From the NCBI GenBank assembly GCA_965200765.1, contig OZ241380.1, positions 2,784,329 through 2,848,328 on the forward strand: a DNA stretch of 64,000 nucleotides, in the 5' to 3' direction. The stretch comes from Arenicellales bacterium. Lineage in GTDB: Bacteria > Pseudomonadota > Gammaproteobacteria > Arenicellales > JAJDZL01. The notes beneath the pieces are model-generated. The model searched no databases and had not been told where the DNA came from. It saw only the letters and a list, made by a program, of their open reading frames with translations. The first letter of the stretch is position 1, and each line of letters opens with the position of its first letter. Both the position numbers and the translations under genes were made by a program. This document shows positions 5,854 to 51,859 of the stretch, piece after piece.

Positions 5854-5879
5854 ATTTTCTTCAAGCAACCAATCGTCAA

Positions 5880-6483: not shown

Positions 6484-6486
6484 TGG

Positions 6487-8646: not shown

Positions 8647-8961
8647 CTGTTTGTATATTCTACTTCATGTAATTCTATGATATTTTTATCCGCACTGAGT
8701 AATCCGACCGTTCGTAAATGCTGTATCGGCGTAGCGGTTGTTACATATTCGTGGCCATCCAAATTCCACGATACTCTTGCATGACGGTCAAGTCGCCGGG
8801 AGCTACTTTAAAATCCCGATCTTTGGTAATTGTGTGTCGACATGCTATTGAAGTTCTCGGGAAATCGCGTGATTCTCCATGCAAGAAATGACTCTTGCAC
8901 GAATATTCGCTCCGTTCTCAACCATTTCCTTTGATAGCTCATATGATTTTTGAGCATTCAT

Positions 8962-9150
8962 CTAAAACTCCAGAGACTGTCCGAAATACTCTCCGATTGC
9001 GATTCCTGTTTCAGCACTGATTACTCCCGCTTTTAGCTGTAGTGACGATTCAATTCTACTTAACAAGCGTCTCCATCTTTCCGAAACGCGAATACTGTAT
9101 TGTCCATTACGGTTACCCCTTAACTATTCAAGACGATTTCCAAGTGGCAT
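8962..9150 (-). pseudogene. Decayed higB-higA-type toxin-antitoxin remnant (toxin C-terminus fused to antitoxin C-terminus)
   Basis: The minus-strand frame reads MPLGNRLE*LRGNRNGQYSIRVSERWRLLSRIE...KAGVISAETGIAIGEYFGQSLEF*. GxRxGQYSIRV-x-xxWR is the HigB/killer-protein motif. ISAxTxxxxxxYFGxSxEF resembles the end of the HigA HTH domain. An internal stop and a deletion are present. Confidence 0.45.
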
Positions 9151-9449
9151 ATTCAGGTCGCCAAGACTTGTTGCAAAATTAATTCTGTCCAACTTGCTCT
9201 TGACTTGTTTCTTCACCCACTTGGCCGTACCACCAATTATGAATACTACCACAGGAGGTACCTACTACTGACGAAACTGGTGCAAAGTCAACCGCACTAG
9301 CCGCTGTCAATCCTTCTAAATCCTTGTATACAATCGCTTCTTTCACTTCATTCAAGAGATGCCAATATGACAATCTGTTCAAAATGAGAATCGCTGACAA
9401 TGTAATTACTTTATTGAATTTTCTTGTTCTATGAGGTAAACTAGTTTCC

Positions 9450-35519: not shown

Positions 35520-35550
35520 TCGTGTTGCATTTGCGGTCTTTGAAATAGCA

Positions 35551-36072
35551 GTGAATCGGTCAATCATCGGTTTTCATCTTGACGAGGAAGACCACTGGAT
35601 TGCAAATCTGGATTGTGGACACAATCAGCACGTAAGGCATCAACCACCATTTGTTAATCGGCCTTGGGTTGTTAGCGAAGAAGGTCGCAATTCCACTCTC
35701 GGCAAGAAACTTGATTGCGTTCGTTGCAATCGAATGGAGTGGCCGGAGGATTGCAAATCCTATCGAAGAACACCTGAATTCGATGAAAATACTGTACCGG
35801 CCGGACTTACAACCAATCACGCCACAAAGCGCGGTATATGGGGGCGAATCCATGTAATTTTCGGAACATTGCTTTACCATGTTGGCCCGCCGGTCAACGA
35901 ATCATTGAGAATTGACCGCGATTCCAGTGCTGTCATTGTCCCTGAGATGTCGCATCGAGTGGAACTTGAAGGACCTGCAAGATTCTATGTTGAATTTTCA
36001 CGAGCAGGTGAGACGATACTTGCCGAGAAAAATAAAAACGGCAAGAAATGTCGGAAAATGCAGGGAAAATGA
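35551..36072 (+). CDS. DUF3565-like + DUF1971 (TehB N-terminal-like) fusion protein
   Basis: The N-terminus FHLDEEDHWIANLDCGHNQHVRHQPPFVNRPWV is the DUF3565 pattern. The C-terminal half, IWGRIHVIFGTLLY...PEMSHRVE, is a DUF1971-like beta-barrel. It uses a non-ATG start (GTG). Confidence 0.55.
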   Translation: MNRSIIGFHLDEEDHWIANLDCGHNQHVRHQPPFVNRPWVVSEEGRNSTLGKKLDCVRCNRMEWPEDCKSYRRTPEFDENTVPAGLTTNHATKRGIWGRIHVIFGTLLYHVGPPVNESLRIDRDSSAVIVPEMSHRVELEGPARFYVEFSRAGETILAEKNKNGKKCRKMQGK

Positions 36073-36106
36073 AACAGTCTCCCCTTTGCCAACCATGGCA
36101 AATAAG

Positions 36107-36140
36107 CAAAAAAAAGTCCGCTATTTGAAAATAGCGGACT
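36107..36140 (-). terminator. Rho-independent terminator downstream of the phasin gene (hairpin is also positioned after the convergent + strand gene)
   Basis: An 11-bp perfect stem joins AGTCCGCTATT (36115-36125) and AATAGCGGACT (36130-36140) with loop TGAA. The minus strand reads hairpin plus T8. Confidence 0.75.
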
Positions 36141-36200
36141 CTATCAAAAAGGAGGAGTTAGTGATATGAAAAAACTTTGCTTGACAATAATATTTGGTCG

Positions 36201-36581
36201 TTAGGCAACCTTCACAACCTTACCGGCATTTTTCTTCGTGTTGTTTGAACCGGTATAGTTCTGCCACAGTGCGGCGTAGGCATCCTTGGCTTCAAATCCC
36301 AAATCAACACAAACTCGAGTGAAATTGGAAACCTGCTCAATCGAATTCTGCAAAACTTTTCCCTGAAGCGCGGTATAGTCATCCGGCGTTTTCATCTGGA
36401 ACCATTCACTGGTCTGTTCAGAAACAGCCTGCATCGCTTGTTTTGCAGCTTTCACATTGTAGTCCGTAGTCTTGTTCAGCAAATTTGCATTGATTGCAAT
36501 TGCTTCGTTCGCCATTTCCACGAATTTCGTTTGCATTGGTGTATCTCCGTTCGGAATCTCAAAAATTTTGTTTTGTTGCAT
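36201..36581 (-). CDS. Phasin-family (PHA granule-associated) protein
   Basis: 126 aa, alpha-helical, low complexity and Ala/Gln/Lys rich, with the phasin_2-like pattern (FVEMANEAIAINANLLNKTTDYNVKAAKQAMQAV). Confidence 0.55.
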   Translation of the reverse strand: MQQNKIFEIPNGDTPMQTKFVEMANEAIAINANLLNKTTDYNVKAAKQAMQAVSEQTSEWFQMKTPDDYTALQGKVLQNSIEQVSNFTRVCVDLGFEAKDAYAALWQNYTGSNNTKKNAGKVVKVA

Positions 36582-36905
36582 TGCAATATAACATCTAACT
36601 GCACGAATGTCAAGATATTTTTCAAATTTTTTTGTGAATGAACTTATCTGACACGAAATATAAGCATAGTATCGTGTCTTACTGGTTATTCTGCTTCAAT
36701 CGATTTTCACCATTCAAGCTTTGTTGTTATGTTGCATTACAGCATAATGTCTGTTCATGTCAGCTGTATTCGTCGACGGCAAGTAGCTAAAGCCGGCCCG
36801 CCCCACTCGTACCCCGGGTTTGGCTTTTCAGTTCGACTCGGTCAAAGAAATGATTTCAGCGATTGAATATGGTGTGTCGTCCATGCCGGCAAAGACGGTT
36901 CTTGT

Positions 36906-39035
36906 TCAACCACGCCTCCATTTATGAAAACGCTCAAGAAATGCAATAGCCTTCGCAGATACATGTGCCCGTCGCCAGTTTCCTGCTGCTAGTCGAACGG
37001 ATTCGGACAAGGTTGGATAAATGTGAATCGCACCAAGAATCTTGTTCAAACCAAGCCCGTGTTGCATGGCCAAAATAAACTCTGCGATCACATCGCCGGC
37101 ATGGTCACCAGCGATAGTCACACCCAGAATCTTGTCCTTTCCGGGCACTGTCAGGATTTTGATGCAACCATGCGTCTCTTCATCCGCTATGGCTCGCGAC
37201 AAATCCTTCATATCGTACCGGGTGACTTCATATTGCACACCCTTTTCCAGTGCTTCCAATTCATTCAGGCCAACCCGTGCAACTTCCGGGTCGGTAAATG
37301 TAGCCCACGGAATGACAGAGTAGTCCACCCGTCGACTATAGAACGGTCGCAGCAAAGCATTGGTCGACGCATACGTCGCTTGATGCGCCCCGACATGCGT
37401 AAATTGGTACGGTCCCGAAACGTCGCCGCATGCATAGATATTTGGAAAATTGGTTTCCAGAAATTCGTTGGTTTGAATCGTTTTTGTCATGGAAAGTTCA
37501 ATGCCAAGTTCCTCGATGCCGTAACCGGCAGTTCTTGCTTTTCTGCCAACCGCGACGATCAAGGCATCAAATTGAATCTTTACTTCTTCCTCTTTGTGCT
37601 TGCAAATCAGGGTCTTCCCGCCGTCCTCCAAAAGAAATTGCTCGGCGCGATGGTCAACCAGAACGTTGACCCCGTCTGCCCTGAATTTCTCCATCACCAT
37701 CTCGGAAAACTCCTGATCTTCTCTGGGTAGAATTCGGGACAGCATTTCCACCTGTGTGACATTGGAACCCAGGCGCGCAAACGCTTGTGCCAATTCACTG
37801 CCAATCGGCCCGCCGCCCAGTATGACAAGTCTTTGCGGCAGCTGCTCCATTTCCCACAAAGTATCCGAAGTCAAATAATCCATTTCTTCGATACCCGGCA
37901 CCGGCGGAACAAAGGGTTCTGCACCTGCAGCAATTACGATGCTTTTGGTCGTCAGTTTCTTGCCATCAACATCTACGCAGTACGGCGATTCAATGGTTGC
38001 ATTGCCGGAGAAGCAATCCACACCCAAACCGGTGTACCGCTCAACCGAATCATGCGGTTCAATGTTCGATATCACTCTCCGGATACGCGCCATGACGTCT
38101 GAAAATTCAAACTCTGCATGCGCGGTATGGATACCGAATTCGGCACTGCGTTTCTGGTGTGCCATGAATTTTGCAGTACGGATCAGTGCTTTGGAGGGAA
38201 CACAACCGGTATTGAGACAATCGCCGCCCATGCTTCCTTTTTCTACCAAAGCCACCTTGGCCTTGACGGCCGCCGCAATGTATGCCGCCACCAGCCCTGC
38301 CGACCCGGCACCAATCACAACTACATTGAAGTCAAATTTCTTTGGTTTGGGAAACTTTCCAAGCACCTTGCGCGACTTGACTACGTCAATGACTTTCTTT
38401 GCGAGTAGCGGGAAGATGCCGAGCAATACAAACGATGCAATCAACGCCGGCGACAAAATACCACTGAGTGAGTCGATCTTGGCAAGCTGGGTGCCGGCAT
38501 TCACATAGACGACCGTTCCGGCCAACATTCCGATTTGACTGACAATATAGAATTTTTTCGTGGAAATTGGAGTCAGTCCCATTAGCAGATTGATGACAAA
38601 AAACGGAAACAGGGGTACCAAACGAAGTGTGAACAGATACAATGCACCATCCTTTTCTACACCTTCATTGATGGCGCGTAGCTTGTCGCCATATCTGCTT
38701 TGAATACTGTCGCGCAACACATATCGGGAGACCAGAAAAGCACAGGTTGCCCCGATGGATGACGCGAACGATACCAGAATGCTCCCAATGACAAGCCCGA
38801 ATATCGCACCCGCTACCAGCGTAATAATGGCCGCACCTGGCAATGACAATCCCGTAATCAGAATATAGAGAACAAAAAACAACAAAGCTGTCTGTACCGG
38901 GTTTGCATCCCTGTACTCCATAATTCGGCCTTGCTGGGCTTTGATGTACTCGAGATTCAGGAATTGGCCCAAGTCAAAGATAAAATACGCAGCGATTAGG
39001 GCAACTACAATGACTACGACAAGAATTTTTTTCAT
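36906..39035 (-). CDS. Fusion protein: TVP38/TMEM64 (DedA-like) membrane domain + FAD-dependent pyridine nucleotide-disulfide oxidoreductase (mercuric/dihydrolipoamide reductase-like)
   Basis: I prefer the start at 39035 (MKKILVVVIVV...). The N-terminal ~230 aa are polytopic membrane. They are followed by GAGSAGLVAAY (FAD), the redox CxxxxC motif GGDCLNTGCVPSK, an NAD motif GGGPIGSE and a C-terminal dimerisation domain. Confidence 0.85.
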   Translation of the reverse strand: MKKILVVVIVVALIAAYFIFDLGQFLNLEYIKAQQGRIMEYRDANPVQTALLFFVLYILITGLSLPGAAIITLVAGAIFGLVIGSILVSFASSIGATCAFLVSRYVLRDSIQSRYGDKLRAINEGVEKDGALYLFTLRLVPLFPFFVINLLMGLTPISTKKFYIVSQIGMLAGTVVYVNAGTQLAKIDSLSGILSPALIASFVLLGIFPLLAKKVIDVVKSRKVLGKFPKPKKFDFNVVVIGAGSAGLVAAYIAAAVKAKVALVEKGSMGGDCLNTGCVPSKALIRTAKFMAHQKRSAEFGIHTAHAEFEFSDVMARIRRVISNIEPHDSVERYTGLGVDCFSGNATIESPYCVDVDGKKLTTKSIVIAAGAEPFVPPVPGIEEMDYLTSDTLWEMEQLPQRLVILGGGPIGSELAQAFARLGSNVTQVEMLSRILPREDQEFSEMVMEKFRADGVNVLVDHRAEQFLLEDGGKTLICKHKEEEVKIQFDALIVAVGRKARTAGYGIEELGIELSMTKTIQTNEFLETNFPNIYACGDVSGPYQFTHVGAHQATYASTNALLRPFYSRRVDYSVIPWATFTDPEVARVGLNELEALEKGVQYEVTRYDMKDLSRAIADEETHGCIKILTVPGKDKILGVTIAGDHAGDVIAEFILAMQHGLGLNKILGAIHIYPTLSESVRLAAGNWRRAHVSAKAIAFLERFHKWRRG

Positions 39036-39157
39036 AATGACTCTGTATTTGAATGAAATTTTTTGATTTTCAATATGATTTTCGCCTTCTTGACCGGAAA
39101 ACAAACTCCAAATTCAATGCTAAATTTATCACACAACCTGCGGTTGGGCATGTCACT

Positions 39158-39793
39158 ATGCTGATTTACTTCATACGACACGGGCAAACCGACTACAACG
39201 TACAACAGAGATTTCAGAGTCAGTTGGACATTCCGCTGAATCGAACTGGTCGACAACAGGCAGAAAAGCTACGCCAATACCTCTTGTCGAACCAGATTCA
39301 TTTACAACCCATCATCAGTTCGCCGCTGTCTCGCGCAACAGAGACTGCCGAAATTATTGCCAAGCAGTATGATGATGTTTTGATCGAGCCCTGTCTTGTA
39401 GAGATCAGCTTGGGTGCTTACGACGGACGATACGAAAGCGAACTGGCAGAAGAAATTGGCAAGCAGGATTACGATACATGGCGCGCCTCATGCTTTACCG
39501 TCCCGTCACCCGGTGGTGAATCTATGCGTGATGCGAAAAATCGTATTGAACCATTGATCGAAAAACTTGCCACATATTCCAAAGATGTGAAGTTGGGGAT
39601 TGTCGCCCATCAGGGAATCCTGATGGCCTGCAAGTCAGTTCTCTCCGGTAAATCAGACGTTGCGTCGCTAATGAATTTCAAGCAACCCAATGATGAAGTT
39701 GACGTTTGGGACTTTGACAATGGCAAGGCCATGAGCTTGCATCGAATCGATTACCGGATTTCTTCCCAAAGCTCGCAGGTTGTTGATTCATAG
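39158..39793 (+). CDS. Histidine phosphatase family protein (phosphoglycerate mutase-like)
   Basis: I prefer the start at 39158 (MLIYFIRHGQTDYN, the RHG catalytic motif). A later ...VAHQGIL stretch supplies the second His. Confidence 0.8.
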   Translation: MLIYFIRHGQTDYNVQQRFQSQLDIPLNRTGRQQAEKLRQYLLSNQIHLQPIISSPLSRATETAEIIAKQYDDVLIEPCLVEISLGAYDGRYESELAEEIGKQDYDTWRASCFTVPSPGGESMRDAKNRIEPLIEKLATYSKDVKLGIVAHQGILMACKSVLSGKSDVASLMNFKQPNDEVDVWDFDNGKAMSLHRIDYRISSQSSQVVDS

Positions 39794-40823
39794 CGACAGA
39801 GTGAAAAGAGTAGCTTTGTAATCTCGGCAACGAGGAACTCGATTGGGTAGGGCTTATAGCGGAGTCAGCATTTCAATTTACGGTGCTGAAACGCCATCGA
39901 AACTTATACTATCAGGAGCTAGAGCATTTACTGAGTGGCTTACTTTCGTTTGTTGAAGTCACCCGGATTGATATTCGCTTGCATCTGATTTTGCCGAAAC
40001 AAGCGTGCTTGATTGGCTCATTTCTGGCTTGCTCGACGAGTTGCTTGGTGCCTCAGGAGCTATGACAAGAACCGGTCCGATGTTCCATTGTAGTCAGTTC
40101 AGTAGGAAAATTTAATAGAATTCACTAAGCTGACAGCACGGAAATCCTCAAACAATGCCGGGCAAACCTTATTCATACTGTAGTCAACCCTTGTAAATCG
40201 GCAATTTCGCCTTCAAAACGAAAGTGAAGCCTCAATTCTCTCACACCAATGCAAGAGAAAATTTGCACCCTACGCTCTCCGATTTGTTGTACAATTGATT
40301 GCATGCTGGTACATCGGCACGACGATTCAAGTTGGCAAAAGGCCATAATTGGGAATGGCAAAGAGTAAGTCCGTATTTGCCTCGTCGACAATCAGTAATT
40401 TTTTACAAATTTGTGGAGCGGAGGTTCTAAATGTCCAGAACACATGTATTTCACAACAAATTTCCAACGGAAAGTACTCAATGCTACATCTTGATTGACA
40501 AAATCGTACTGAGCGAATATTGTGTATCATGAAAGTTTTCCTGAGTATCATTTTATTTGTAATGCTAACTCCAGTAGTATAGTCTCAAAATTTTATGGTG
40601 AAGAATATAGGAGGCTACCGCTGACAACTGAAATTTATTAAGCAATATCCGAAAGTCAATCAAAAGTGGCTTAGTGGTTTCTTTACCTAGTACCAGCCTA
40701 CAAATGATGGTAACAGAGTGACTCGAACACGTGATCAGTCAAAGACGATATACTTTTGAAATTATCGTAAAATAATTCGGAATCTTTTCAAAATTAAATT
40801 TCAGAGAATTCAATTTTACAAAC

Positions 40824-41609
40824 ATGAATACCATTAAGCTTTATAAATTTGTCAATTCGAGTTACGGACTTTCGAATTTACGCGAACGAAAAATTAAAAT
40901 TTCTCGCTTGGAAGATTTGAATGATCCTTTCGAACTGAGAGCTATCCGTTCGCTGTCGTGTGAAATCAAACAACTTTTAGAAAACGAAAGGAAGGAATTT
41001 TCGAAAAAGTACGGGGTACTTTGTTTTTGCAAAGATTGGCGAAGTCCAGTTCTTTGGGCACACTATGCAGAAAACCACCAAGGTCTATGCTTTGGTTTTG
41101 AAATTTGCAAAGAATTTGTAGGCAACGTGGGCTATGTAGAACAACCAATTAACGCTGATGACTATTTTGAAGAGTTGATTGCGAATAGTGATGAACAAAA
41201 AAAGAAAATATTAGACTATATTGATAAATCTAAATCCTATGAAGAGTTTAAACTTAGATATAGAGAGGTAATTGAACAGGTGACAGAAGAAAATCTGAAA
41301 TCGGTAGAATCAGATGAGAAAGGCCGTCGTTTGCTGGAAAAAATCTTGTTAACAAAATTTTCGCATTGGAGTTACGAAAGAGAATACAGACTCTTCCCGG
41401 AATTAAACCAAGATTTCTGTGTATTCACTAGTGATACAAATGACGATCAATATAACATAAAACTAACAGAAGTTATAATTGGTCTAAATTCATGTTTAAG
41501 TTTGAATGCAGTTCAAAACGCACTTGGAGATTCATTTGAATATGTGAAAATATTTAAATCCGACCTGCATGACGAAAAGTTTGAAATGAAAAGAACTCAA
41601 TTGAATTGA
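40824..41609 (+). CDS. DUF2971 family protein
   Basis: 261 aa with LYKFVNSSYGLSNLRERKIKISRLEDLNDPFE...LCFCKDWRSPVLWAHYAENHQGLCFGFE, the hallmark DUF2971 pattern. It is very AT-rich. Confidence 0.7.
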   Translation: MNTIKLYKFVNSSYGLSNLRERKIKISRLEDLNDPFELRAIRSLSCEIKQLLENERKEFSKKYGVLCFCKDWRSPVLWAHYAENHQGLCFGFEICKEFVGNVGYVEQPINADDYFEELIANSDEQKKKILDYIDKSKSYEEFKLRYREVIEQVTEENLKSVESDEKGRRLLEKILLTKFSHWSYEREYRLFPELNQDFCVFTSDTNDDQYNIKLTEVIIGLNSCLSLNAVQNALGDSFEYVKIFKSDLHDEKFEMKRTQLN

Positions 41610-41854
41610 GTTTTACCGGCCGTAAAAATTTTATTTCTGCTTCTTACCCTGGTCCGGTTTTCTGGAAAACGGCATAGTGTTGAATTTTAAACAAGACAAC
41701 CTAAGGGAATAAAGCCAAGGAAAAAGATCAACGAATCAATGATAGGACCAGAAACATTGTTTGCGAAAGATGGTATGTCCGCAGGAAGCGATGGCCTCTC
41801 CACCTCGCGATGCTTGCGCACCGAACCCGACACTACATCCTTAGCAGAACTTGT

Positions 41855-42105
41855 TTATCGGCGCGGGAGTTCCTTTTCAATCCCCGGAATCCCTTGCTCC
41901 GCAAAGCGCCGGCACCATCGACCCACAGTGTTCTTGTCGATCCCCACAAGCCAGGAGATTTCAATATTGCTCAAACCCGCTACCGCATATGCAAGATGAT
42001 CTTGGCACGCTCCGTCAGCCAACGCACATGCTTGCGACCCGTGGCCCAAGTCATCAGCTTCTTCTCCTGCTCCGCCGTCAAATGAATCTCCACCGCCTTC
42101 CTCAT
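41855..42105 (-). pseudogene. IS630-family transposase N-terminal (HTH) remnant, frameshifted and truncated
   Basis: The minus strand reads MRKAVEIHLTAEQEKKLMTWATGRKHVRWLTERAKIILH, then a 2-nt insertion, then AVAGLSNIEISWLVGIDKNTVGRWCRRFAEQGIPGIEKELPRR*. This is the IS630 HTH_23/29-like N-terminus. The DDE core is absent. Confidence 0.7.
41942..42010. repeat. Left arm of an inverted repeat shared by the two IS630 remnants
   Basis: The reverse complement aligns to 44112-44178 with 4 mismatches and one 2-nt indel over about 67 nt (hand alignment). Confidence 0.8.
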
Positions 42106-42273
42106 CGTTACCTCCCGGCCAATTCGACCGTGCTGAATTCAACCATGAAGGCAGTATACATATAATCAATCATCTTTATCATTTATCGTGGACTCACCAG
42201 TAGTTATGCACTTTGTACTTACTAGTTCACTCTTACTCCATCACGCGTTTGGCCAGCTCCGATTCCACTATCT

Positions 42274-43827
42274 TTAACGCAGTGCCCTAGTTAACCAAAC
42301 AGCAGCGGCAGGTTCAGCGATTTCTACTGATTCTGACAACCAAGTGTTAAATCTAAATTCAATGCTATCTATGGATTCGGCATAATTGAACTGAAATAAA
42401 TCTCTAGTAGCAGACTGCACATTCAAAGGTACAACATTGCCACTGTTGTTTGATGTACCCGCGACTGTTAGTGCTGATACTACCATAATACCACTTTCTT
42501 GATCTCCGAACCAATGCAAACTCAGAATATATGCGAAATATTCTTTATTTGTTATAGAGAGTTTCATCCAATCTTCAAAATCGAGAAATTCAACAGAATA
42601 ATCAAAACTGTTTGCTACTTCAACAATTTGATTATAGAGGGAATATTTGTCGCCAGTATCAGAGTTGGATGAGGATATACTCACCTTGCAAATTGATGGA
42701 TCAGTCGGTTGTAGCACCGAAAGTCTGCCTTCAAGGTACATTTCGAAATCTTTAATTTCTTTATTGATGATTGTGACAATTTTGCTAGAGTAATTTTGAA
42801 CCATCTTTGTTTTTTCAGAAATTGATTCGTTGTCGTTATTTACATAGGCAGCTACGGACGGCCAAACATTTTCGGAAAAATATTTTTGACGGACTTTCTG
42901 TTCCAAACTGAGAGCATTCAAAATTGAACTCCTTTGTCGCTCGACGAACAAATCTACCAAATCAGTCAAATCACCAGAATCTGCTTTTTCCAAAGCATCA
43001 ATATATTGATCTCTTTCCAAATTTCTAATTACAAGTGGAAAAATATTATTTTGCAGAAATACAAGACTTGCTAGTGCTCTAGCTACACGCCCATTGCCAT
43101 CTTGAAATGGATGAATTTGAACAAAGCGGTGATGTAGCCATGCGGCCAATACTTCAGGCGCACACCGATGTTCAATTTCTCTATACCACTCCAATAGATT
43201 CTCCATTTCATTTTTGGTCTGTTCTGGTGGGCAGTAATGGTGAAGGACTCCATCCGGTCTTCTAGGATTGTTGGGACGAACTTTGTACACACCTTTTTCA
43301 AGCGGTATATGCACTCGCTTTCCATCAATAGAAAATCCTGCCGCTGTATCTTGATGAGTAGTAAATTTCGCATGTAAATTACGAATAAAGTGTTCAGTGA
43401 GCGGTTGTTCTCTTTTTACGTAAGAGAACAAACCTTCTACGATGCCAAGTTGGTCATCAATCAAGCTTTTAATCTGTTCTGCTGTATCTCTTTGAACTCG
43501 ACCCTGATGAGCGATAATTGCAGAATCTATACCCTGTTCAATCAGTACCTCGGTTACCCCTCGATCCCAATGGTACAAGCGTTCAATAAGCCCAGTTTCA
43601 ATCGCCCACTCCTTGTTCAGATTCGCGATAAAATTCTGGTACAAATTAGTTTCGATCAGACTGTTTTTTTTGTCATTCCAGACTGTAGTCAATGCTCTTA
43701 ACTCGACTGAAGCAAGTTCTTCTGCATTGCTAGGCAAGTGTTCAATAAATTGATAGGCCATTCGCTTTTCCTTGTAATTGTGCATTGTCAAGTTTTTATT
43801 GTACCCATAAACGATTTCAGTTTTCAA
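42274..43827 (-). CDS. Fic/DOC family protein with a canonical AMPylation motif and an uncharacterised ~190-aa C-terminal extension
   Basis: The core motif HPFQDGNGRVAR matches HxFx(D/E)GNGRxxR. The alternative start at 43761 (MAYQFIEHLP) is preceded by AAGGAAAAG. Confidence 0.85.
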   Translation of the reverse strand: MKTEIVYGYNKNLTMHNYKEKRMAYQFIEHLPSNAEELASVELRALTTVWNDKKNSLIETNLYQNFIANLNKEWAIETGLIERLYHWDRGVTEVLIEQGIDSAIIAHQGRVQRDTAEQIKSLIDDQLGIVEGLFSYVKREQPLTEHFIRNLHAKFTTHQDTAAGFSIDGKRVHIPLEKGVYKVRPNNPRRPDGVLHHYCPPEQTKNEMENLLEWYREIEHRCAPEVLAAWLHHRFVQIHPFQDGNGRVARALASLVFLQNNIFPLVIRNLERDQYIDALEKADSGDLTDLVDLFVERQRSSILNALSLEQKVRQKYFSENVWPSVAAYVNNDNESISEKTKMVQNYSSKIVTIINKEIKDFEMYLEGRLSVLQPTDPSICKVSISSSNSDTGDKYSLYNQIVEVANSFDYSVEFLDFEDWMKLSITNKEYFAYILSLHWFGDQESGIMVVSALTVAGTSNNSGNVVPLNVQSATRDLFQFNYAESIDSIEFRFNTWLSESVEIAEPAAAVWLTRALR

Positions 43828-44099
43828 CCGGCTAAATTCGCGAAAGACTTAGAAATTGGATGAAATGGTCCGGTGCGGGCGACAACTACGAAATTTCTGG
43901 TCGGTATCAAGGTGTGTACCTCACATCACAAGCGATGCTTCTGACTACCCCGATCTTTCAGAAAGGGCCTTCGCGGCTTCAAGACCCACAGAACCGCGCG
44001 AAACCTTCGATATTCACTCGCGACCTGCTGGTGTATGCGCGGCTTTGGGGTACCGTCTTGCTTTACGTGCTCTAGCATTTCTCAAAAGTTCCAGCCCGC

Positions 44100-44421
44100 A
44101 CCGAAGACGATGCATGCCAAGATCATCTTGCATGCGGCAACGGGTTTGAGCAATATTGAAATCTCCCGGCTTGTGGGGGGTGAGCGAAACCTATCGCTGT
44201 CATCGGCACGAGGAGTTCCTTCGGTTTCTTCGCGAAATTGACCCAGCCAGCACATCAAGCGTAGCGCCTACACCTCGGTGGCTCATCTGGAAGCCTGCCT
44301 CAAAGAATATGTGGAAAGCCACGACAAGGCCTCGCAACCGTTCGTGTGGACCAAGCCTGCGGACGAAAACCCGGCGAAGATCGAGCGTGCCAAGAAGGCG
44401 CTTCCAGCACACCAGATATAA
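44100..44421 (+). pseudogene. IS630-family transposase remnant with internal deletions (HTH fragment + mid fragment + C-terminus; DDE core missing)
   Basis: Three frames together read AKIILHAATGLSNIEISRLVG, TYRCHRHEEFLRFLREID and HIKRSAYTSVAHLEACLKEYVESHDKASQPFVWTKPADENPAKIERAKKAL*. These are all IS630-type segments, but they are discontinuous. Confidence 0.7.
44112..44178. repeat. Right arm of the inverted repeat shared by the two IS630 remnants
   Basis: See 41942-42010. The arms are about 94% identical by hand alignment and lie in opposite orientation. Confidence 0.8.
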
Positions 44422-44639
44422 TCTATATTTTATTATGAGCACACCACTATTTTAAGTGTATAGAGGTGATGACCTCATTCCAAACCGGGTGCTTCAATCC
44501 ACTGGACAAATCTCTTCCCTGTTTTCGTGGTGCAAGAGTATACTTTCAACCTTTTACGAATGAAGCGTCTTTGTAAGAATGTGTAACAAGATACCGAAAC
44601 CTCAGTGGCAACACCGGTGACAACACGAACGTTTTTGAA

Positions 44640-46154
44640 ATGAGTCAGGCAATCGTCGCAACAGGTCATCCTGCAACCTCACAATCTGCCGCCTCCATTC
44701 TGCGAATGGGTGGAAATGCGGTGGATGCCGCCATTTCAGCCTTGCTTACATCCTGCATGACTGAACCGGCACTGTCTTCGCTCGGTGGCGGCGGATTCGC
44801 AATGGTTCACATGCATGATTCCAATCCGGTTCTCGTTGATTTTTTTGCCCATGCACCGAAAAAATTGAAATCTGCCCACGAAGTCAGTATTCGATCGTTT
44901 ATCTGCGATTTTGGCAGTGCCCAGCAAGAATTTCATATCGGCGCAGGCACCAGTACAGTTCCTGGTACGGTAAAAGGCATTTTCGAGTTGAGCAGAAATT
45001 TCGGGCGAATGTCAATGAAAGACCTGATACAACCCGCAATTGACACACTGAAGGAAGGTATTACCGTAAATGAGTTGCAAGCCAAATTCCTGGACATGTT
45101 GTCACCTATTTATCTTGACCCTTCCGCGCGACCTATTTTTGAAAGCAGGCAAAATCCCGGGGAAACACTGACCACCGGTGAAAAAATGTACTGTTCCGAG
45201 TACTGCGACCTGCTTGAAACACTTGCAATTGAAGGTCCTGACTTGTTCTATCGGGGTGAAGTTGCGACGCTAATTCACAAAATCGCAGAATTCGACGGCG
45301 GTACTGTAACTGCTCGGGACCTGAAAAATTATCAAGCTCATTTTCGAAAACCGTTATCAGTCTCATACAGGAACCATGCTGTATTCCTGAATCCTCCCCC
45401 ATCCACTGGTGGACTACTGATTGCAATGGCACTGTTGCTCTTGCACCCGACCAAACCAGACACCTTCGACTCTCCCAAACATGTGAATGCATTGCTGAAT
45501 GCAATGAAAACTATCAACGAACTGAATGAAGCTGCACCTTCCGAGATCATTGACAAGAAATTGCAACGCCATTATTTCAAGATTCGCCGAGAAATGTTAG
45601 CCGCTTCGCGCGGCACCACACACATTTCAGTTATCGATCAAAAGCGTAATGCAGTGGCCTTGACGATTACAAACGGAGAAGGTTGCGGCACCATAGTACC
45701 GGGCACGGGGATTATGCTGAACAACATGCTTGGAGAAGCCGACTTGAATCCCCGTGGGTTGGTCGACTGGGTTCCAGACGTTCGACTCAGCTCCTCAATG
45801 GCACCCACCATTGCAATACGAAACAATGGCGACCAGGTCGTTACCGGTTCCGGGGGTTCGAACAGAATCTATTCAGCACTACTGCAGGTGCTGGTCAATT
45901 TGATTGACTACCAGATGTCCGTGGAGCAAGCTGTTGTTGCCCCGCGTGTACATTATCATGAAGGTGCCGCTTATCTGGAAGATTTGTTCGGCGAAAATAC
46001 CGTGGAAACAGTTTTAACACAATTTGAAGACATCACACGTTTTCCAGAATGCAATGTTTTTTTCGGTGGTGCTCATACAGTTCGTTCTACCCGAAGTGGT
46101 CTCGAAGGATGCGCAGATGAACGAAGATCGGGACATTGCATTCGAATTCCGTGA
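44640..46154 (+). CDS. ggt: Gamma-glutamyltransferase family protein
   Basis: 504 aa with ATGHPATSQSAASILRMGGNAVDAA, the autoprocessing/catalytic Thr context SRGTTHISVID, and GSGGSNRI. Confidence 0.88.
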   Translation: MSQAIVATGHPATSQSAASILRMGGNAVDAAISALLTSCMTEPALSSLGGGGFAMVHMHDSNPVLVDFFAHAPKKLKSAHEVSIRSFICDFGSAQQEFHIGAGTSTVPGTVKGIFELSRNFGRMSMKDLIQPAIDTLKEGITVNELQAKFLDMLSPIYLDPSARPIFESRQNPGETLTTGEKMYCSEYCDLLETLAIEGPDLFYRGEVATLIHKIAEFDGGTVTARDLKNYQAHFRKPLSVSYRNHAVFLNPPPSTGGLLIAMALLLLHPTKPDTFDSPKHVNALLNAMKTINELNEAAPSEIIDKKLQRHYFKIRREMLAASRGTTHISVIDQKRNAVALTITNGEGCGTIVPGTGIMLNNMLGEADLNPRGLVDWVPDVRLSSSMAPTIAIRNNGDQVVTGSGGSNRIYSALLQVLVNLIDYQMSVEQAVVAPRVHYHEGAAYLEDLFGENTVETVLTQFEDITRFPECNVFFGGAHTVRSTRSGLEGCADERRSGHCIRIP

Positions 46155-47317
46155 CCGGATATTTCACCAGAATTATTCCTGACCCCGGTCAACGCCGGGT
46201 GATTTTGTCCGTAGTTGCTGTGATCGCAGTCTACGGATTGACAATCGGCATGTTTCATCCCTTGATCAGTCTGAACATGGAAGCACGCGGCTACAGTTCG
46301 ACACTCATTGGCATCACCGGGATGATGCCTTTTGTCGCCGCCATTTTTGCTTCTCCGCTGGCCCCGCTACTGATGCGTAGCATAAATATCAACAAGCTGA
46401 TTGCCATTTGCATATTTCTGGATTTTCTATTCGCATTGATTTTGGCATTTTTCGACGATGTTTATCTGTGGATGGGAATTCGGTTTCTGATGGGAGTGGT
46501 GGGAACATTCATGTTCGTTGCCAGTGAAAGCTGGCTTGCTGAAATTGCCGAAGATCATTCGCGTGGTCAAATCATGGGTATCTATACATTTACCCTGAGT
46601 GCTACTTTTGCTCTCGCACCGATTGTTGTGATTATCTTCGGTGTCCATGGTCCCACGCCGTTTATTGTGGCGGCAATCATTATTGTTTCGGCGCTCTTGC
46701 CGCTTTGGGGTACGCGCGACGCAAGTCCGGATTTTTCTGGCGGCAAGGTGTCCCAGGTATTCAAGTTCATGGTATTGGCTCCAACATTGACGGCCGCCGT
46801 CGCTCTGGTTTCATTTGAAGAAGCAGCGATTTTGACGCTGATGCCAGTCTACGCGATCTACAGTGGGCTCAGTGAGGCACACTCCGCGTTCATTCTGACT
46901 ATTGTCGCAGTCGGCTCCATGGTGTTTCAACCACTCGTGGGCTGGCTCGCAGACCAAATGAACCGGCACAAGTTGATCCTTTTGTGTACGGGGATTTCCA
47001 TATTGGGAGGACTCTTGGTTTCTGTTACGATTACTGTGCAAATTCTGGCTTGGCCGATCCTTTTTGTTTGGGGCGGCGCAGTCGCAGGCATTTATACGGT
47101 AGCGCTGACATTGCTCAGTCAGCATTTTCGCGGCGCACAGCTCGCCGCCGGCAATGCCGCTTTCGGCATCATGTGGGGCGTTGCCGGGACTTCCGGACCT
47201 TTGGCCGCAGGAATTGCAATCGACTGGTGGAACCCGCATGGATTTATCGTCGTGGTCACCATTGCCGGTTTGGCTTTTCTGATTCTTGCCGGAATCAGAG
47301 GGGCTTCAAAAAGGTAA
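46136..47317 (+). CDS. MFS transporter
   Basis: 393 aa with about 12 hydrophobic segments. It overlaps the ggt 3' end by 19 nt, so the exact start is uncertain. Confidence 0.75.
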   Translation: MHSNSVTGYFTRIIPDPGQRRVILSVVAVIAVYGLTIGMFHPLISLNMEARGYSSTLIGITGMMPFVAAIFASPLAPLLMRSININKLIAICIFLDFLFALILAFFDDVYLWMGIRFLMGVVGTFMFVASESWLAEIAEDHSRGQIMGIYTFTLSATFALAPIVVIIFGVHGPTPFIVAAIIIVSALLPLWGTRDASPDFSGGKVSQVFKFMVLAPTLTAAVALVSFEEAAILTLMPVYAIYSGLSEAHSAFILTIVAVGSMVFQPLVGWLADQMNRHKLILLCTGISILGGLLVSVTITVQILAWPILFVWGGAVAGIYTVALTLLSQHFRGAQLAAGNAAFGIMWGVAGTSGPLAAGIAIDWWNPHGFIVVVTIAGLAFLILAGIRGASKR

Positions 47318-47435
47318 TGTTGTGTTTTGCAATCAAAATCCAGTTCATCGGAAAAATAGCAAGAATCGGCTTGTGATTCCAGGTTTGAAAATAGAAAATG
47401 AACTTGAAACTTTCATTGAAACTTGGTAACTGGAC

Positions 47436-48281
47436 ATGTGTAGCAACGACTATCAACGAATCGAAAAATCCATACACTTCATAGAAGAAAACTTTGCGCG
47501 GCAACCTTCGCTGAATGAGATTGCCGACTACACTGGTTTGAGTGAATACCATTTCCAAAGACTTTTCAAGCGATGGGCCGGTATTTCTCCCAAGCGTTTT
47601 GTGCAGTATTTGACTGCACAGTACTCCGGCACACTGCTTCGAACAAACATGACTTTGCTCGATACTTCAATGGAAGCTGGACTTTCAAGTACCGGTCGCT
47701 TGCATGATCTGTTTGTCAATGTCTATGCCATGACTCCCGACGAGTATCGGCATGAGGCGAAGAACCTGATAATCCGTTATGGATGGTTTTCGTCTCCGTT
47801 TGGTAACTGTCTCGCCGGAAAAACAGATCGCGGTATTTGCTGGCTTAGTTTTCATGACAAGCCCAACCGCGATGGTATTGAACAATTGCAAAGCGAATGG
47901 AAAGGTGCATCTTTGGTGGAATCCGATGATGCGATCAAAAACGAAATGAATCGGGTATTTGGAAAAGAACACGATGTGTCCACTGAGTTCATGGTGCATT
48001 TGAAGGGTACGAATCTTCAAATCAGGGTCTGGGAAGCTCTGTTGAAAATTCCGCAGGGCAAACTGGTCTCATATTCGCACCTGGCGAAAGTTGTTGAACG
48101 GCCCGATGCTGTTCGCGCAGTTGCTTCCGCAGTTGGCCGAAATCCCGTTTCTTATCTTGTCCCTTGCCACAGAGTCATACGACAATCCGGTGGACTGGGC
48201 GGATATCGCTGGGGATTGACCCGAAAAACAGCTATTTTAGCAAGGGAATCACTTCAAAATTGCTCGCATGAGACAGGATAG
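47436..48281 (+). CDS. AraC-type HTH regulator fused to methylated-DNA--protein-cysteine methyltransferase (Ada/AdaA-Ogt-like)
   Basis: The N-terminal AraC HTH reads LNEIADYTGLSEYHFQRLFKRWAGISPKRF. The C-terminal MGMT active site is PCHRVIRQSGGLGGYRWG. Confidence 0.85.
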   Translation: MCSNDYQRIEKSIHFIEENFARQPSLNEIADYTGLSEYHFQRLFKRWAGISPKRFVQYLTAQYSGTLLRTNMTLLDTSMEAGLSSTGRLHDLFVNVYAMTPDEYRHEAKNLIIRYGWFSSPFGNCLAGKTDRGICWLSFHDKPNRDGIEQLQSEWKGASLVESDDAIKNEMNRVFGKEHDVSTEFMVHLKGTNLQIRVWEALLKIPQGKLVSYSHLAKVVERPDAVRAVASAVGRNPVSYLVPCHRVIRQSGGLGGYRWGLTRKTAILARESLQNCSHETG

Positions 48282-48468
48282 CCGTACTTGATAGAATTGT
48301 AGAAACTCATATAATCACCATAACGCCAGGGGTGCCAGAGCAAAAACACGCAACAGCAAGCAAATCCGACCGCAAAGGAAAGGTTTGAGAAGATTTCTGC
48401 AGGAAAATGGACGAACCTCCTGCCATTGTTGCAGTGTAAATTCAAAAGGCATTCCCGATGAATAACAC

Positions 48469-49377
48469 ATGCCTTATTGTTATCAGGAGATTGAACTGAT
48501 GAAAACTTCAATGAAGGCTTTTGGCACTTCGAGTCGTACCGGTCATGATTCAAGTGAATTTTACAAGCGCAAGATTTACAATGACCATGACTCAGTTGTC
48601 AAGGGATTGGTCGATGACGAATTTGAACCGATAGACTGTAAAGCTACTGGACAAATTTATCAACATTCCAGTGAATCAATGCATGAGTTGCCTGACCAGT
48701 CCGTACATTTGATGGTTACGTCTCCACCGTACAATGTCGGTAAGGAATATGATAAAGACCTGTCAATCGATGAATACATGGATTTATTGAATCGTGTCTT
48801 TCGTGAAACCTATCGAGTACTTGTTCCTGGAGGAAGAGCTTGCATCAATATAGCCAATATTGGCCGCAAACCTTATTTACCTCTGAATGCCATGCTGATA
48901 CAGACAATGCTAGAAATCGGATATTTGATGCGCGGAGAAATAATTTGGAACAAGTCGGCAAGCGCAGGAGTTTCTTGCGCTTGGGGCAGCTGGCTTTCCC
49001 CGTCCAATCCAGTATTGAGAGATGTACATGAATACATAATTGTTTTTTCCAAAATCGGATACTCACGCAAATCAAAGGAAAGGAAAGGAACTATCGACAG
49101 AGATGATTTTCTTGAATGGACAAAGAGTATCTGGCAAATGCCCGCTGAATCTGCAAAGAGGGTGAATCATCCTGCTCCTTTCCCTCTTGAATTGCCGCGC
49201 AGACTGATTCATCTTTATACGTTTGAAAATGACATTGTTCTTGACCCGTTCATTGGTTCGGGAACAACAGCCATTGCTTGTATTGAATCAGGACGGCAAT
49301 ATGTTGGCTATGATATTTCTGAGGATTATGTCACTACAGCTAACAATAGAATAAGCAATCACCTGAGTAATTTATGA
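48469..49377 (+). CDS. Beta-class DNA methyltransferase (N4-cytosine or N6-adenine), solitary
   Basis: Motif IV TSPPYNVGKEY precedes motif I DPFIGSGTTAIAC, which is the beta-class order. An alternative start lies at 48499. Confidence 0.85.
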   Translation: MPYCYQEIELMKTSMKAFGTSSRTGHDSSEFYKRKIYNDHDSVVKGLVDDEFEPIDCKATGQIYQHSSESMHELPDQSVHLMVTSPPYNVGKEYDKDLSIDEYMDLLNRVFRETYRVLVPGGRACINIANIGRKPYLPLNAMLIQTMLEIGYLMRGEIIWNKSASAGVSCAWGSWLSPSNPVLRDVHEYIIVFSKIGYSRKSKERKGTIDRDDFLEWTKSIWQMPAESAKRVNHPAPFPLELPRRLIHLYTFENDIVLDPFIGSGTTAIACIESGRQYVGYDISEDYVTTANNRISNHLSNL

Positions 49378-49621
49378 TTCAATGCATCATTGAAATGTTT
49401 GCAGACATAAATTGTCAATATAAAAAGTAAAAAGAAATATTTCAGTTAAAGTTTTGCGGATTGTTGGTTCATTGAAAATTGGAATTGAAATAAGCTGGAA
49501 TTACAAACCAATATATGACAAATTCATGGTGAATATATTTTTGTAAAAAGATTGCGGCAGTATTTGCTATATACCTGTTTCAGTTCAACTACTGGTGGCA
49601 CAGGAATTTCATTTAACCAAT

Positions 49622-51718
49622 CTAACTTTCAGTTTCAAGCTGCTCGCGGCATGGCAATGCCTCCAATAGTTTCACCAGAGAATCAAATGGCGGACTACAC
49701 GTATTCTCACTGCACAAGTACGCATTTGTTTCTTCTGTAACCGGCAACTGTGCCAATGCCCCGGGGCGTACAGTCGAATCGGAAGGTACCGCAAGAATCG
49801 TCATGTTTAATGGACCTTGATCAACACAAGCACCCAGCCAATCTGCCAACTGATTCGTATCGCCCTGTAGCAAAACCGTAGTTGGTCCTACGAATGCTTC
49901 CTCCGAGGCACACACCAGTGAACCATAGGAAGACGGCATACGCTTTGCACCATCTTGCAGCGCTGAAACGACCGAACGGGCCTCTTCTGTATATCGCAAA
50001 TCGCCCAGCGTATGTCCAACTCTCAATAGTAAACGAGCAAATACACCATTTCCCGAGGGGGTTGCATCATCATGAGTCGGCAAAGACCGATAAAGCAATT
50101 CCTCGTGGTCATCAGATGTAAAGTAAAACGCACCGGATTCTTTATCTTGAAAATACTCAAATATGGCTTCAATCAAATCCAGCATGAAATAGTAGTCGGT
50201 CTCTCGCCATCTCGCCTGCAGGAGCTCGAATACTCCGTCGGCCATGAACACATAATCGTCCAGATAAGCGTTTAAATGCGCCTTGTCTCCTCTCGACGCG
50301 GCCAACAGGCGACCGTCTTTCCACATGCGGTCACGTACATAGTCAACTGCACGTTCCGCCGATTGAACAAACTCCTCGCGATGCAACATTCGACCTGCTT
50401 TTGCCATAGCCTTGATCATCAGTCCATTCCAGGATGCCAGTACTTTGTCATCTAACCCCGGACGAATACGCTTGGAGCGAGCATCATGCAATTTTTGTCG
50501 TCCACTTGCAATTGAACCATCCACTTCACTCTGTGAAAACCCGGTACGTTCGACAACAGTCTCCAGTGAGTTGACTACGCTGAGATGCCACTTGCCCTCG
50601 AAATTCGGAGCTCCGCGCAAACCAAAACGAACCTCGAATACCCGTAGTTCCTGCTCAGTCAGCAGTTTTTGCAACTCCTCCCGTTCCCAAACATAGTACT
50701 TGCCTTCATGCCCCTCCGAATCTGCGTCCAATGCGGAATAGTATCCGCCCGTCGACGATTGCATTTCACTCAACACCCATTCGGCAACACCGGATGCAAC
50801 TTCGTGAAAATCCGGTCGATTGGCAACAAAGCCGTAGTCCACATATACCGGCATCAGCAATGCACTGTCATAGAGCATCTTTTCGAAATGAGGAATTTCC
50901 CACTTTGCATCGACCGAGTATCGGTAAAACCCGCCGCCAATTTGGTCATACAATCCACCATGCGCCATCGCTTGCAAAGTATGCACCGCTTTTTTCATTG
51001 CCGATTCCCTTTCCTTTGCATCCCGCTCCATTGACAAGCTGTATGCAAGCAACAAGTCGTATTGTGTTGAATGCGGAAATTTGGGTGCATCTCCAAAGCC
51101 GCCATAAACCGGGTCGTAGTACGCCTCCAACTCGCGAACAGCATCACTCAGCAACGATTCAGCCGGCCCGGCTTGGGCCTTGCTAGACGCACTCTGTAGT
51201 TTCAGGAATGCATCCTTGATCGCTTTGTTGTGTTGCGGAATTTTGTCTCTGTTGACTTGAAAATTTTGGGCGATTCGGTCCAGCAATTCACCAAAGCCTG
51301 GCATTCCCATTCGTGCCGTTTTCGGAAAGTAAGTACCGGCAAAGATCGGTGTATGCTCGTCAGGTGTAAGAAACATGGTGAGTGGCCAGCCTCCGCCGCG
51401 CTGATTGAACAACTGATGAGCAAGCTGGTAAATCTTGTCCAAATCCGGTCGCTCTTCGCGATCAACTTTTACACAAATATATTGCGAATTCATTTTTTGA
51501 GCGATTTCTTCATCTTCGAAGGACTCGCGTTCCATGACATGGCACCAGTGGCAAGCCGAATAACCAATGGAAAGCAGAATCAGCTTCTCTTCAGCTTTTG
51601 CGCGCGCCAATGCTTCCGGTCCCCACGGATACCAGTCTACCGGATTGTAGGCATGCTGAAGTAGATAGGGACTTGATTCGTGGACCAATCGATTGGGTTC
51701 TTTGCTTGACTCGGACAC
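49622..51718 (-). CDS. Thioredoxin-domain protein of the DUF255/YyaL family (thioredoxin fold + six-hairpin glycosidase-like domain)
   Basis: 698 aa with [54 protein letters not shown], the family hallmark. Confidence 0.85.
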
Positions 51719-51859
51719 TGAACTGAAAAAACCAATTTGCTAAGTGGATGAAGATTTTTTTGAAAATTGCTTGTTCAGTTTATACCACTTTCGATGGTTC
51801 AACCTTGCCATGATCAATCAGGAGATACAACCACACTCCCGCATCTGAAGAAGCGAAGT

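Follow-up and report, generated by a model that had tools for sequence, protein, structure and literature searches.

A Fic gene between two decayed, inverted IS630-family remnants in a variable islet of an Arenicellales genome

In the window (the whole 64-kb stretch of DNA analysed here, from an uncultured gammaproteobacterium of the Arenicellales), we detected a short interval of foreign composition between two syntenic core genes. Its left flank is a histidine phosphatase gene (39053-39793, plus strand, Pfam His_Phos_1), which is syntenic with oxidoreductase, GGT and MFS genes in two Arenicellales metagenome-assembled genomes (L003 and L006), and its right flank is the gamma-glutamyltranspeptidase (GGT) gene (44640-46154, plus strand, Pfam G_glu_transpept, E = 1.5e-98). 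Between them are encoded a DUF2971 protein (40824-41609, plus strand; PF11185, 29.9 bits, cut-off 22) and a Fic protein on the minus strand, the latter gene lying between two fragments of an IS630-family insertion sequence. The low GC content runs from about 40400 to 43800 and includes the DUF2971 gene (33.8% GC), which is located outside the pair of insertion sequence (IS) fragments. The bracket formed by the fragments is thus not the boundary of the islet, because the low-GC foreign DNA of the DUF2971 gene continues past the left one. DUF2971 (PDC-S31, E = 7e-27) and Fic both match PADLOC models of candidate single-gene phage-defence systems. For none of the window's GGT, Fic and DUF2971 proteins did an exact-protein look-up give a match. 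Scanning the window for Rfam families and for tRNAs returned nothing, so there is no tRNA-linked integrative element, and no integrase was found in the window.

The gene content of this interval varies. The sequence-only reading had proposed a comparison with related genomes lacking the block at 41.7-44.45 kb, and L003 and L006 proved to be such genomes, with unrelated genes between the syntenic flanks (OmpA-like, AlkA-like and ICD genes in L003; glyoxalase, AlkA-like and SDR genes in L006). Fic, DUF2971 and IS630 are all absent from the interval in these two genomes and, conversely, no relics of their interval genes (OmpA-like, AlkA-like, ICD, glyoxalase, SDR) were found in the window. The islet resembles the genomic and defence islets known from variable hotspots in its conserved core flanks, differing content, low-GC cargo, defence-like genes and decaying IS copies, and differs from them in being very small (about 4 kb) and in having no detected integrase, tRNA or attachment repeats.

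The Fic cassette (42266-43879, minus strand) consists of a coding sequence at 42274-43761 (495 aa) and 118 bp upstream of it. The protein scores 71.6 bits on the Pfam Fic model PF02661 (cut-off 24), its closest relative of solved structure is 3cuc (E = 7.6e-24), and the canonical AMPylation motif HPFQDGNGRVAR at amino acids 217-228 satisfies the family motif HxFx(D/E)GNGRxxR. PADLOC returned PDC-S04 (E = 1.6e-24) and SoFic (E = 3e-20), both matches covering the Fic core only. The protein is therefore like these candidate single-gene defence systems in its HPFQDGNGRVAR-containing Fic domain, and also in the variable, defence-island-like surroundings of both contexts in which the gene was found (see below). 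It differs from SoFic in failing the equivalog model NF046030 (34.9 bits where 550 are required) and in having no inhibitory-helix motif, as a search of the protein for (S/T)xxxE(G/N) found none. Compared with the Fic/DOC AMPylases, it differs in its C-terminal half, about 200 aa that have no family assignment. The protein may act in defence or as a toxin. Its gene is intact, and dN/dS values of 0.15-0.37 indicate purifying selection. It apparently has its own promoter, predicted from a consensus match at 43798-43827 on the minus strand (TTGAAA-18-TACAAT), inside the conserved cassette and just upstream of the Fic ATG. At 38.8% GC compared with 47.3% for the window, the cassette looks foreign, and the local value of 33-34% at 42350-42800 agrees with the figure of about 33% first counted by hand in one line (42601-42660) of the enclosed DNA. 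Between the cassette and the right IS fragment lies a non-coding block (43880-44105, 52.7% GC) that is not IS sequence and shows patchy collinear homology to the region upstream of Fic in another locus, L094.

Both IS fragments map to one parent element of 1,224 bp, which belongs to the IS630 family (L083, positions 5773-6996) and to which they align at 86-96% DNA identity, confirming that two oppositely oriented IS630 fragments flank the Fic gene. [quoted passage not shown] The element begins with GTGGTGAGTCCA and ends with GGACACACCAC, terminal inverted repeats in which 12 of the first 13 positions match. L083 and L088 each contain an independent full-length copy in the arrangement C-TA-[IS]-TA-G, and a TA duplication within CTAG is thus a mark of this element; the parent, its terminal repeats and the target duplication that the sequence-only reading had asked for were all recovered through these copies. 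In this it is like IS630 itself, which has short terminal inverted repeats and duplicates TA in CTAG (PMC2170065). The closest named relatives are ISAzs31 and ISBmu8, both of the IS630 family, with 51% and 48% amino acid identity to the parent transposase; as no named IS was found above 51%, we regard the element as new and unnamed. A JGI metagenome scan with the transposase reached no relative above 54% identity and was uninformative on the parent.

The left remnant (41862-42200, minus strand) represents IS nucleotides 341 to 1 and is 90.4% identical to IS nucleotides 2-341 of L083. It contains the left terminal inverted repeat (IRL, 42188-42200, facing Fic), the 5' UTR and codons 1-81, which encode the HTH part only, in agreement with the earlier view that this copy is truncated after the HTH; tblastn with P0126 recovers amino acids 1-39 and 37-81. 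Its outer side, IS nucleotides 342-1224, is gone, so the remnant ends at 41862. From the sequence and the alignment, a TA dinucleotide (42201-42202) abuts the intact IRL. The right remnant (44106-44447, plus strand) has lost its 5' end and two internal segments, leaving three pieces that meet at microhomologies: IS nucleotides 188-266 (44106-44183), 787-839 (44179-44231) and 1001-1224 (44223-44447). The corresponding tblastn matches to P0126 are at amino acids 31-58, 230-252 and 309-365, the residues actually kept being about 31-56, 230-247 and 302-365, and the composition first read from the letters, HTH plus a mid fragment plus C-terminal pieces, is thus borne out. This copy keeps the right terminal inverted repeat (IRR, 44435-44447), which abuts a TA at 44448-44449; the next base is G in L084 and L093 and T in the window. 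Each remnant therefore retains one end only, the partner TA having been lost together with the deleted end. None of the catalytic residues D181, D264 and E300 is retained in either remnant, as had been supposed when both were said to lack a DDE core, and relative to other IS630-family insertion sequences both are non-autonomous wrecks. The fragments placed at 41855-42105 and about 44100-44421 are real, but the remnants reach further, into the non-coding IS ends at 42200 and 44447. No more IS fragments were found in the two GC-richer blocks at 41610-41861 and 43880-44105.

The two copies are inverted, with the transposase genes pointing outward and the left ends toward Fic, and they have derived characters in common relative to L083 and L088. 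The sole stretch that both retain is IS nucleotides 188-266, and it is the source of an inverted match, found by blastn, between 41942-42016 (minus strand, IS nucleotides of about 188-262) and 44106-44178, with 67 identities in 75 positions (89%, E = 3e-24), 6 mismatches and one 2-nt gap. The repeat of about 67 nt noticed by eye (41942-42010 against 44112-44178) has exactly the 4 mismatches and 2-nt indel reported for it and lies within this single, wider match, of which no further copy exists in the 64-kb window. The indel stems from an inserted AT at 41987-41988, which, as proposed, frameshifts the left copy and breaks its 82-codon HTH open reading frame; the insertion is strain-specific, being missing in L089, L093, L083 and L088.

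All relatives at 95-97% identity already carry the same truncated remnants, and every relative recovered (L089 and L093) lacks the left outer junction just as the window does. The right remnant occurs as three deletion alleles: the one shared by the window and L089, one in L084-87 that lacks 44102-44242 and one in L093 that lacks 44123-44371. An 82-aa HTH protein and a 136-aa protein (P0002) that are called as open reading frames in these relatives are wreckage of the IS.

The Fic cassette is demonstrably mobile between two loci. It recurs in a different context, CbbQ-VWA-Fic-AAA_14, in L090, L091 and L092, with 90.6-91.2% DNA identity over 42266-43879, and L094 matches the window at 84.8% over 42247-43940 and in a further patch at 44020-44045. 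Of the DNA enclosed by the remnants (42203-44105), about 94% (42247-44045) is thus homologous to a Fic locus elsewhere, and no homology to the L094 locus was seen outside the remnants. The dS of the window Fic against L090 and L091 is 0.20-0.22, compared with 0.45-0.52 for L090 or L091 against L094. Neither a trace of IS630 nor a conserved small open reading frame downstream of Fic was found in the CbbQ-VWA-Fic-AAA_14 context.

We think it somewhat probable that a variable islet between core genes has gathered foreign, defence-like genes and two separate IS insertions that are now decaying. Under this reading, the histidine phosphatase-GGT interval is a variable spot, occupied here by a foreign islet of about 4 kb with DUF2971, Fic and two dead IS copies. 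The two copies would have inserted separately, at TA in CTAG-like sites, beside a Fic cassette that was already present, in inverted orientation and with their left ends toward Fic. Both would then have lost function through microhomology-mediated deletions, a decay that appears to be ongoing, with three right-remnant alleles among the strains and the left frameshift in this strain only, and the unit is now immobile around a Fic gene that is intact and under selection. The reading is favoured by the occurrence of the cassette at a second locus free of IS630 traces, by the differing interval content in L003 and L006, and by the foreign low-GC DNA that extends beyond the bracket and includes a second gene that is defence-like by PADLOC. 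It is also consistent with remnants that map onto one IS, which has terminal inverted repeats and duplicates TA within CTAG, with an arrangement common to the relatives at 95-97% identity in which the right copy is still losing sequence and Fic is maintained, and with the reported great rarity of natural IS630 composite transposons (PMC11544213). Inverted copies of the same lineage that tightly flank a cassette, and enclosed DNA of which about 94% recurs as a segment elsewhere, are a point against it; the latter match is predicted by a composite transposon and less specifically by independent insertion. Nor was another vehicle for Fic seen, with neither integrase nor tRNA in the window. Among the relatives we found no allele with Fic but minus one of the IS copies, so the order of arrival, with Fic before the insertions, is something we infer.

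The same bracket is what a fossil composite transposon would leave, a reading that we consider possible but rather unlikely. IS copies would have flanked Fic in a donor locus like CbbQ-VWA-Fic-AAA_14, and a 1.9-kb segment, mobilized by its two outer right-end repeats, would have moved as an IS-Fic-IS unit to a TA in the histidine phosphatase-GGT interval, where both IS copies later decayed. The sequence-only reading had held that Fic arrived between two IS copies, and had named fragments from different IS families, or similarity confined to the HTH-coding stretch without detectable IS ends and with Fic syntenic in all relatives, as grounds for giving this up. Neither ground applies: both copies belong to the same IS lineage, share derived characters and have detectable ends. 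Their inverted, outward-facing arrangement is the geometry reported for Tn630-NC1 of Nitrosomonas communis, an inverted IS630-type pair with outward transposases and a short cargo including a toxin-type gene, likewise degenerated by indels (PMC11544213), and transposition of an engineered IS630 composite into the TA of CTAG is on record (Tenzen and Ohtsubo 1991, as cited in PMC2170065). One outer end with its TA is intact at 44447-44449, the DNA between the remnants is collinear with the L094 Fic locus in a way that the DNA outside is not, and the dS values put the window Fic inside the diversity of the CbbQ-VWA context, which fits transfer from such a locus. The reading is only partly supported: the inverted same-lineage bracket and the mobility of its cassette stand, whereas the outer pair, the empty site and the second copy that would complete the case were not found. 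With the left outer end deleted, only the IRR at 44447 is left of the outer ends, and neither a pair nor a flanking TA duplication can be demonstrated. Second copies of the unit are missing from plasmids and metagenomes (plasmids searched at the DNA level with the complete unit yielded no match and a JGI metagenome scan with Fic no relative), and no empty site was found among the relatives, of which the close ones carry the unit and the distant ones unrelated genes. In these respects, and in its single-gene cargo and the lack of a known transposition product, the unit differs from Tn630-NC1 and the engineered composite. The second Fic locus is free of IS traces, the two copies are just 89% identical across their 75-nt overlap, and natural IS630 composites are rarely reported. 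The foreign DUF2971 gene, adjoining but outside the bracket, indicates that the spot gains genes by other routes too. No proof that the unit is a fossil composite transposon can be given, and two insertions in place explain the arrangement equally well.

The 75-nt overlap also bears on a third possibility, a single IS copy split by an inversion with one breakpoint inside the IS and one beyond Fic, flipping IS nucleotides 1-341 together with Fic while the remainder of the IS stayed where it was. The left remnant does consist of the 5' part of the IS only and the right one mostly of the 3' part, and the IRL with its C-TA flank and the IRR with its TA-G flank would together rebuild one CTAG target. 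A simple inversion, however, cannot duplicate IS nucleotides 188-266, which both remnants contain; the two versions of the shared stretch differ at 8 of 75 positions, and a staggered event duplicating more than 75 bp would be unusual. On these grounds we judged the single-copy inversion very unlikely, and two independent copies are the simpler reading, because the 75 nt are present in both remnants. Less probable still, to the point of being hardly credible, is the idea that the 82-codon HTH open reading frame of the left copy was co-opted as a small partner, regulator or antitoxin of Fic. L089 and L093 retain it uninterrupted at 82 aa, on the Fic strand and 168 bp downstream of that gene, SoFic has a small downstream antitoxin of 47 aa, AS1 (PMC12249575), and the window Fic has no inhibitory (S/T)xxxE(G/N) motif of its own. 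Nevertheless, in the window the frame is shifted while Fic is intact, which argues against dependence of Fic on it, and the Fic cassettes of L090, L091 and L094 are accompanied neither by this frame nor by a conserved small downstream one. The frame has too few substitutions for a selection test.

The islet is an ordinary genomic scar of a common kind, and the value of its analysis lies mainly in annotation. It defines an unnamed IS630 element of 1,224 bp with the terminal inverted repeat GTGGTGAGTCCA and a TA duplication in CTAG, it exposes the 82-aa HTH protein and P0002 annotated in relatives as IS debris rather than genes, and it flags the histidine phosphatase-GGT interval as a variable spot with two defence-like genes. 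If the unit were a composite transposon, it would be among the very few natural cases in which cut-and-paste elements of the IS630/Tc1/mariner type moved bacterial defence genes as composites; proof would add a rare natural instance of IS630-mediated gene capture and leave the understanding of such elements unchanged. The three alleles of the right remnant offer a compact and clear view of a dead IS being eroded by microhomology deletions in a population.

The Fic gene is bracketed by two decayed fragments of one IS630-family element. The left remnant (41862-42200, minus strand) corresponds to nt 1-341 of the 1,224-bp parent element at 90% identity; it runs from the left inverted repeat through the 5' UTR to codon 81. 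The end that is still intact faces Fic next to a TA (42201-42202), and on the outer side the remnant breaks off within the IS. The right remnant (44106-44447, plus strand) consists of three IS pieces (nt 188-266, 787-839 and 1001-1224) joined at 5-bp and 9-bp microhomologies; the right inverted repeat that closes it is intact and adjoins a TA (44448-44449). The transposase genes of both point outward, with the left ends on the inner side. As the sequence-only reading had claimed, neither copy has a DDE core: none of the catalytic residues of the intact transposase (D181, D264 and E300) is kept, the third piece of the right remnant beginning one codon past E300.

The only strong inverted match in the sequence pairs 41942-42016 with 44106-44178 (67/75 identities, six mismatches and one 2-nt gap, E = 3e-24), and no further sequence resembling either fragment was found anywhere in the 64-kb window. 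IS nt 188-266 is the only part of the element that both remnants retain, and their mutual similarity therefore does not extend beyond 75 nt. Within this overlap, both carry common derived states relative to the copies on metagenomic contigs L083 and L088 (e.g. GGGTTTGAGC) and are thus members of one IS sub-lineage. On the minus strand, the transposase N-terminus MRKAVEIHLTAEQEKKL... is separated by a frameshift from ...AGLSNIEISWLVGIDKNTVGRWCRRFAEQGIPGIEKELPRR, and on the plus strand AKIILHAATGLSNIEISRLVG, VSETYRCHRHEEFLRFLREID and HIKRSAYTSVAHLEACLKEYVESHDKASQPFVWTKPADENPAKIERAKKALPAHQI lie in three different frames. The earlier factual description was right as a whole: its peptides were recovered on translation of both strands, its four mismatches and 2-nt indel over a narrower span were counted exactly as claimed, and the frameshift of the left copy was confirmed as an AT insertion, found in this window alone. 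The fragments belong to the same IS family, not to different ones, and IS ends are detectable.

Using the joined transposase pieces as a protein query, we retrieved metagenomic contigs with more complete copies. In L083, an element of 1,224 bp (5773-6996) has ends (GTGGTGAGTCCA... and ...GGACACACCAC) that match at 12/13 first positions and sits in the context C-TA-[IS]-TA-G; L088 contains another copy, 80% identical, in the same context. The element resembles IS630 in this respect, for which TA duplication within CTAG is known (PMC2170065, citing Tenzen and Ohtsubo 1991). After correction of two frameshifts, L083 yields a 365-aa protein that scores 257 bits over the full profile length of the NCBIfam IS630 model (cut-off 100) and also matches the Pfam DDE_3 and HTH domains. 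Intact copies exist, since a database protein, P0126, matches this reconstruction end to end with 100% identity. With ISAzs31 (51%) and ISBmu8 (48%) as the nearest named elements, the element is an IS630-family member that has not been named. Two other proteins called in public data are wreckage of the same IS: in P0003 (100 aa, 575-bp ENA contig), transposase aa 1-39 run straight into the C-terminal tail, as in an internal deletion of the MITE type, and in P0002 (136 aa; contig L084, 547-957), the transposase C-terminus is attached to the block upstream of Fic.

In the 495-aa product of the Fic gene (42274-43761, minus strand), Pfam detects a Fic domain; the canonical motif HPFQDGNGRVAR is present and the inhibitory (S/T)xxxE(G/N) motif is absent. 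The protein's best solved relative is 3cuc, and it matches the PADLOC models PDC-S04 and SoFic, but falls short of the SoFic equivalog cut-off (34.9 vs 550). A promoter-like site is predicted nearby (43827-43798). At 40824-41609, just outside the left remnant, a DUF2971 gene is found whose PADLOC match is the candidate PDC-S31. GC content is 47.3% in the window overall, 38.8% in the Fic cassette, 52-54% in the IS remnants (57% in the parent IS in L083) and 33-34% in 40400-41609, which includes DUF2971; foreign low-GC DNA therefore extends beyond the bracket. The ~1 kb between the histidine phosphatase and DUF2971 genes (39794-40823), across which GC drops from 44% to 33%, has no ORF longer than 74 aa on either strand, no Rfam match and no relic of the genes occupying the interval in relatives. 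The tRNA and Rfam scans of the window gave zero matches.

The best genome representatives are Arenicellales MAGs. In L003 (gamma-glutamyltranspeptidase, GGT, 53% and oxidoreductase 76% identical to the window at the protein level), the order oxidoreductase, histidine phosphatase, interval, GGT, MFS is kept, and L006 retains the oxidoreductase, histidine phosphatase and GGT. In both, the interval contains no Fic, DUF2971 or IS and is filled by unrelated genes instead, of which no relics were found in the window; the histidine phosphatase-GGT interval is thus a variable spot. Three sets of close-relative contigs show the arrangement of the window. L089 is collinear with 34275-51782 at 96.95% identity and has both remnants; L093 (95.5%) retains Fic as well as the left remnant and has lost 44123-44371, a deletion bounded by a pair of imperfect 21-nt direct repeats; L084-L087 (~95%) lack 44102-44242. 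The right remnant therefore occurs as three deletion alleles (window and L089; L093; L084-L087). IS insertion and most of the truncation are older than the split of these strains, and decay is ongoing.

Between the window and L089, 1.5 kb (39750-41250) is 100% identical, versus ~98% in the remainder of the islet (41250-44500) and ~96% in the flanking core genes, which suggests that the islet was recently exchanged by recombination, or swept, between strains. A 20-bp segment (48339-48358, AGCAAAAACACGCAACAGCA) between an AraC/Ada-like gene and the next downstream gene is missing from L089. Metagenome assemblies made independently from this population or a close relative of it break alike, both where the low-GC islet starts on its left side (contigs L001 and L002 end at window 40221 and 40193) and within Fic (L084-L086 start at 43314). 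Likely reasons are that strains differ at the edge of the islet and that a second copy of Fic exists.

This second copy, from another genome of the same samples, is 91% identical. Fic thus also travels independently of the IS: the cassette is found at a different locus, CbbQ-VWA-Fic-AAA_14/DUF4143, near toxin-antitoxin and TIR genes, where Fic is low-GC as well and no IS630 trace was detected. Window 42266-43879 has counterparts of 90.6-91.2% DNA identity on contigs L090, L091 and L092. For L094, the matching stretch is 42247-43940 (84.8%), with a further 26 nt (44020-44045) in collinear position. The common segment makes up ~94% of what the remnants enclose; the flanks outside them have no homology to the second locus. 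Fic is intact in 6/6 loci (dN/dS 0.15-0.37). Judging from synonymous divergence, the Fic of the window nests inside the diversity of the second context (dS 0.20-0.22 against L090 and L091, versus 0.45-0.52 between either of these and L094). In the second context (L090 1-12200; L091 and L094 around 8001-9488), Fic lies between the CbbQ-VWA genes and an AAA_14/DUF4143 ATPase gene, with PIN, MazE-like, ThsB-TIR, NTase-substrate-binding and N6_N4 methyltransferase genes nearby, and the region resembles a defence island, with a content that varies among the three genomes. A gene at window 51862-53866 is 73.6% identical in DNA to L094 11655-13659, compared with 84.8% for Fic in the same pair; if the two are orthologous, Fic would have moved between lineages after their divergence.

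The sequence-only reading had seen in this arrangement a fossil composite transposon that brought Fic in between two IS copies. This reading has genuine support: both copies come from one IS lineage, face outward in inverted orientation like those of Tn630-NC1 (PMC11544213), bracket nearly exactly the mobile Fic segment and preserve one outer end with its TA. However, the left outer end is missing, and with it the junction that could show a target duplication; neither an empty site nor a second copy of the unit was found in the relatives, JGI metagenomes and plasmids searched; no IS accompanies Fic in its other context; and DUF2971, a second foreign gene, lies outside the bracket. The prior is lowered because natural IS630 composites are reported to be very rare (PMC11544213), and we regard such an origin as rather unlikely. 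As it fails or escapes each decisive test, we favour, as somewhat probable, two separate insertions: the Fic cassette would already have resided in a variable, defence-like islet, two IS copies would then have inserted in place around it, and both would have decayed by deletion.

The splitting of a single IS copy by inversion is very improbable because IS nt 188-266 are present in both remnants. That the 82-aa HTH ORF of the left remnant was co-opted as a Fic partner is scarcely credible, since this ORF is frameshifted in the window and absent from the other Fic context (compare PMC12249575). The locus is an ordinary mobile-element scar, in which the IS630 element and the Fic gene both belong to known kinds. 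The finding would not surprise a specialist; it is of use for annotation and illustrates on a small scale how an IS erodes within a population.
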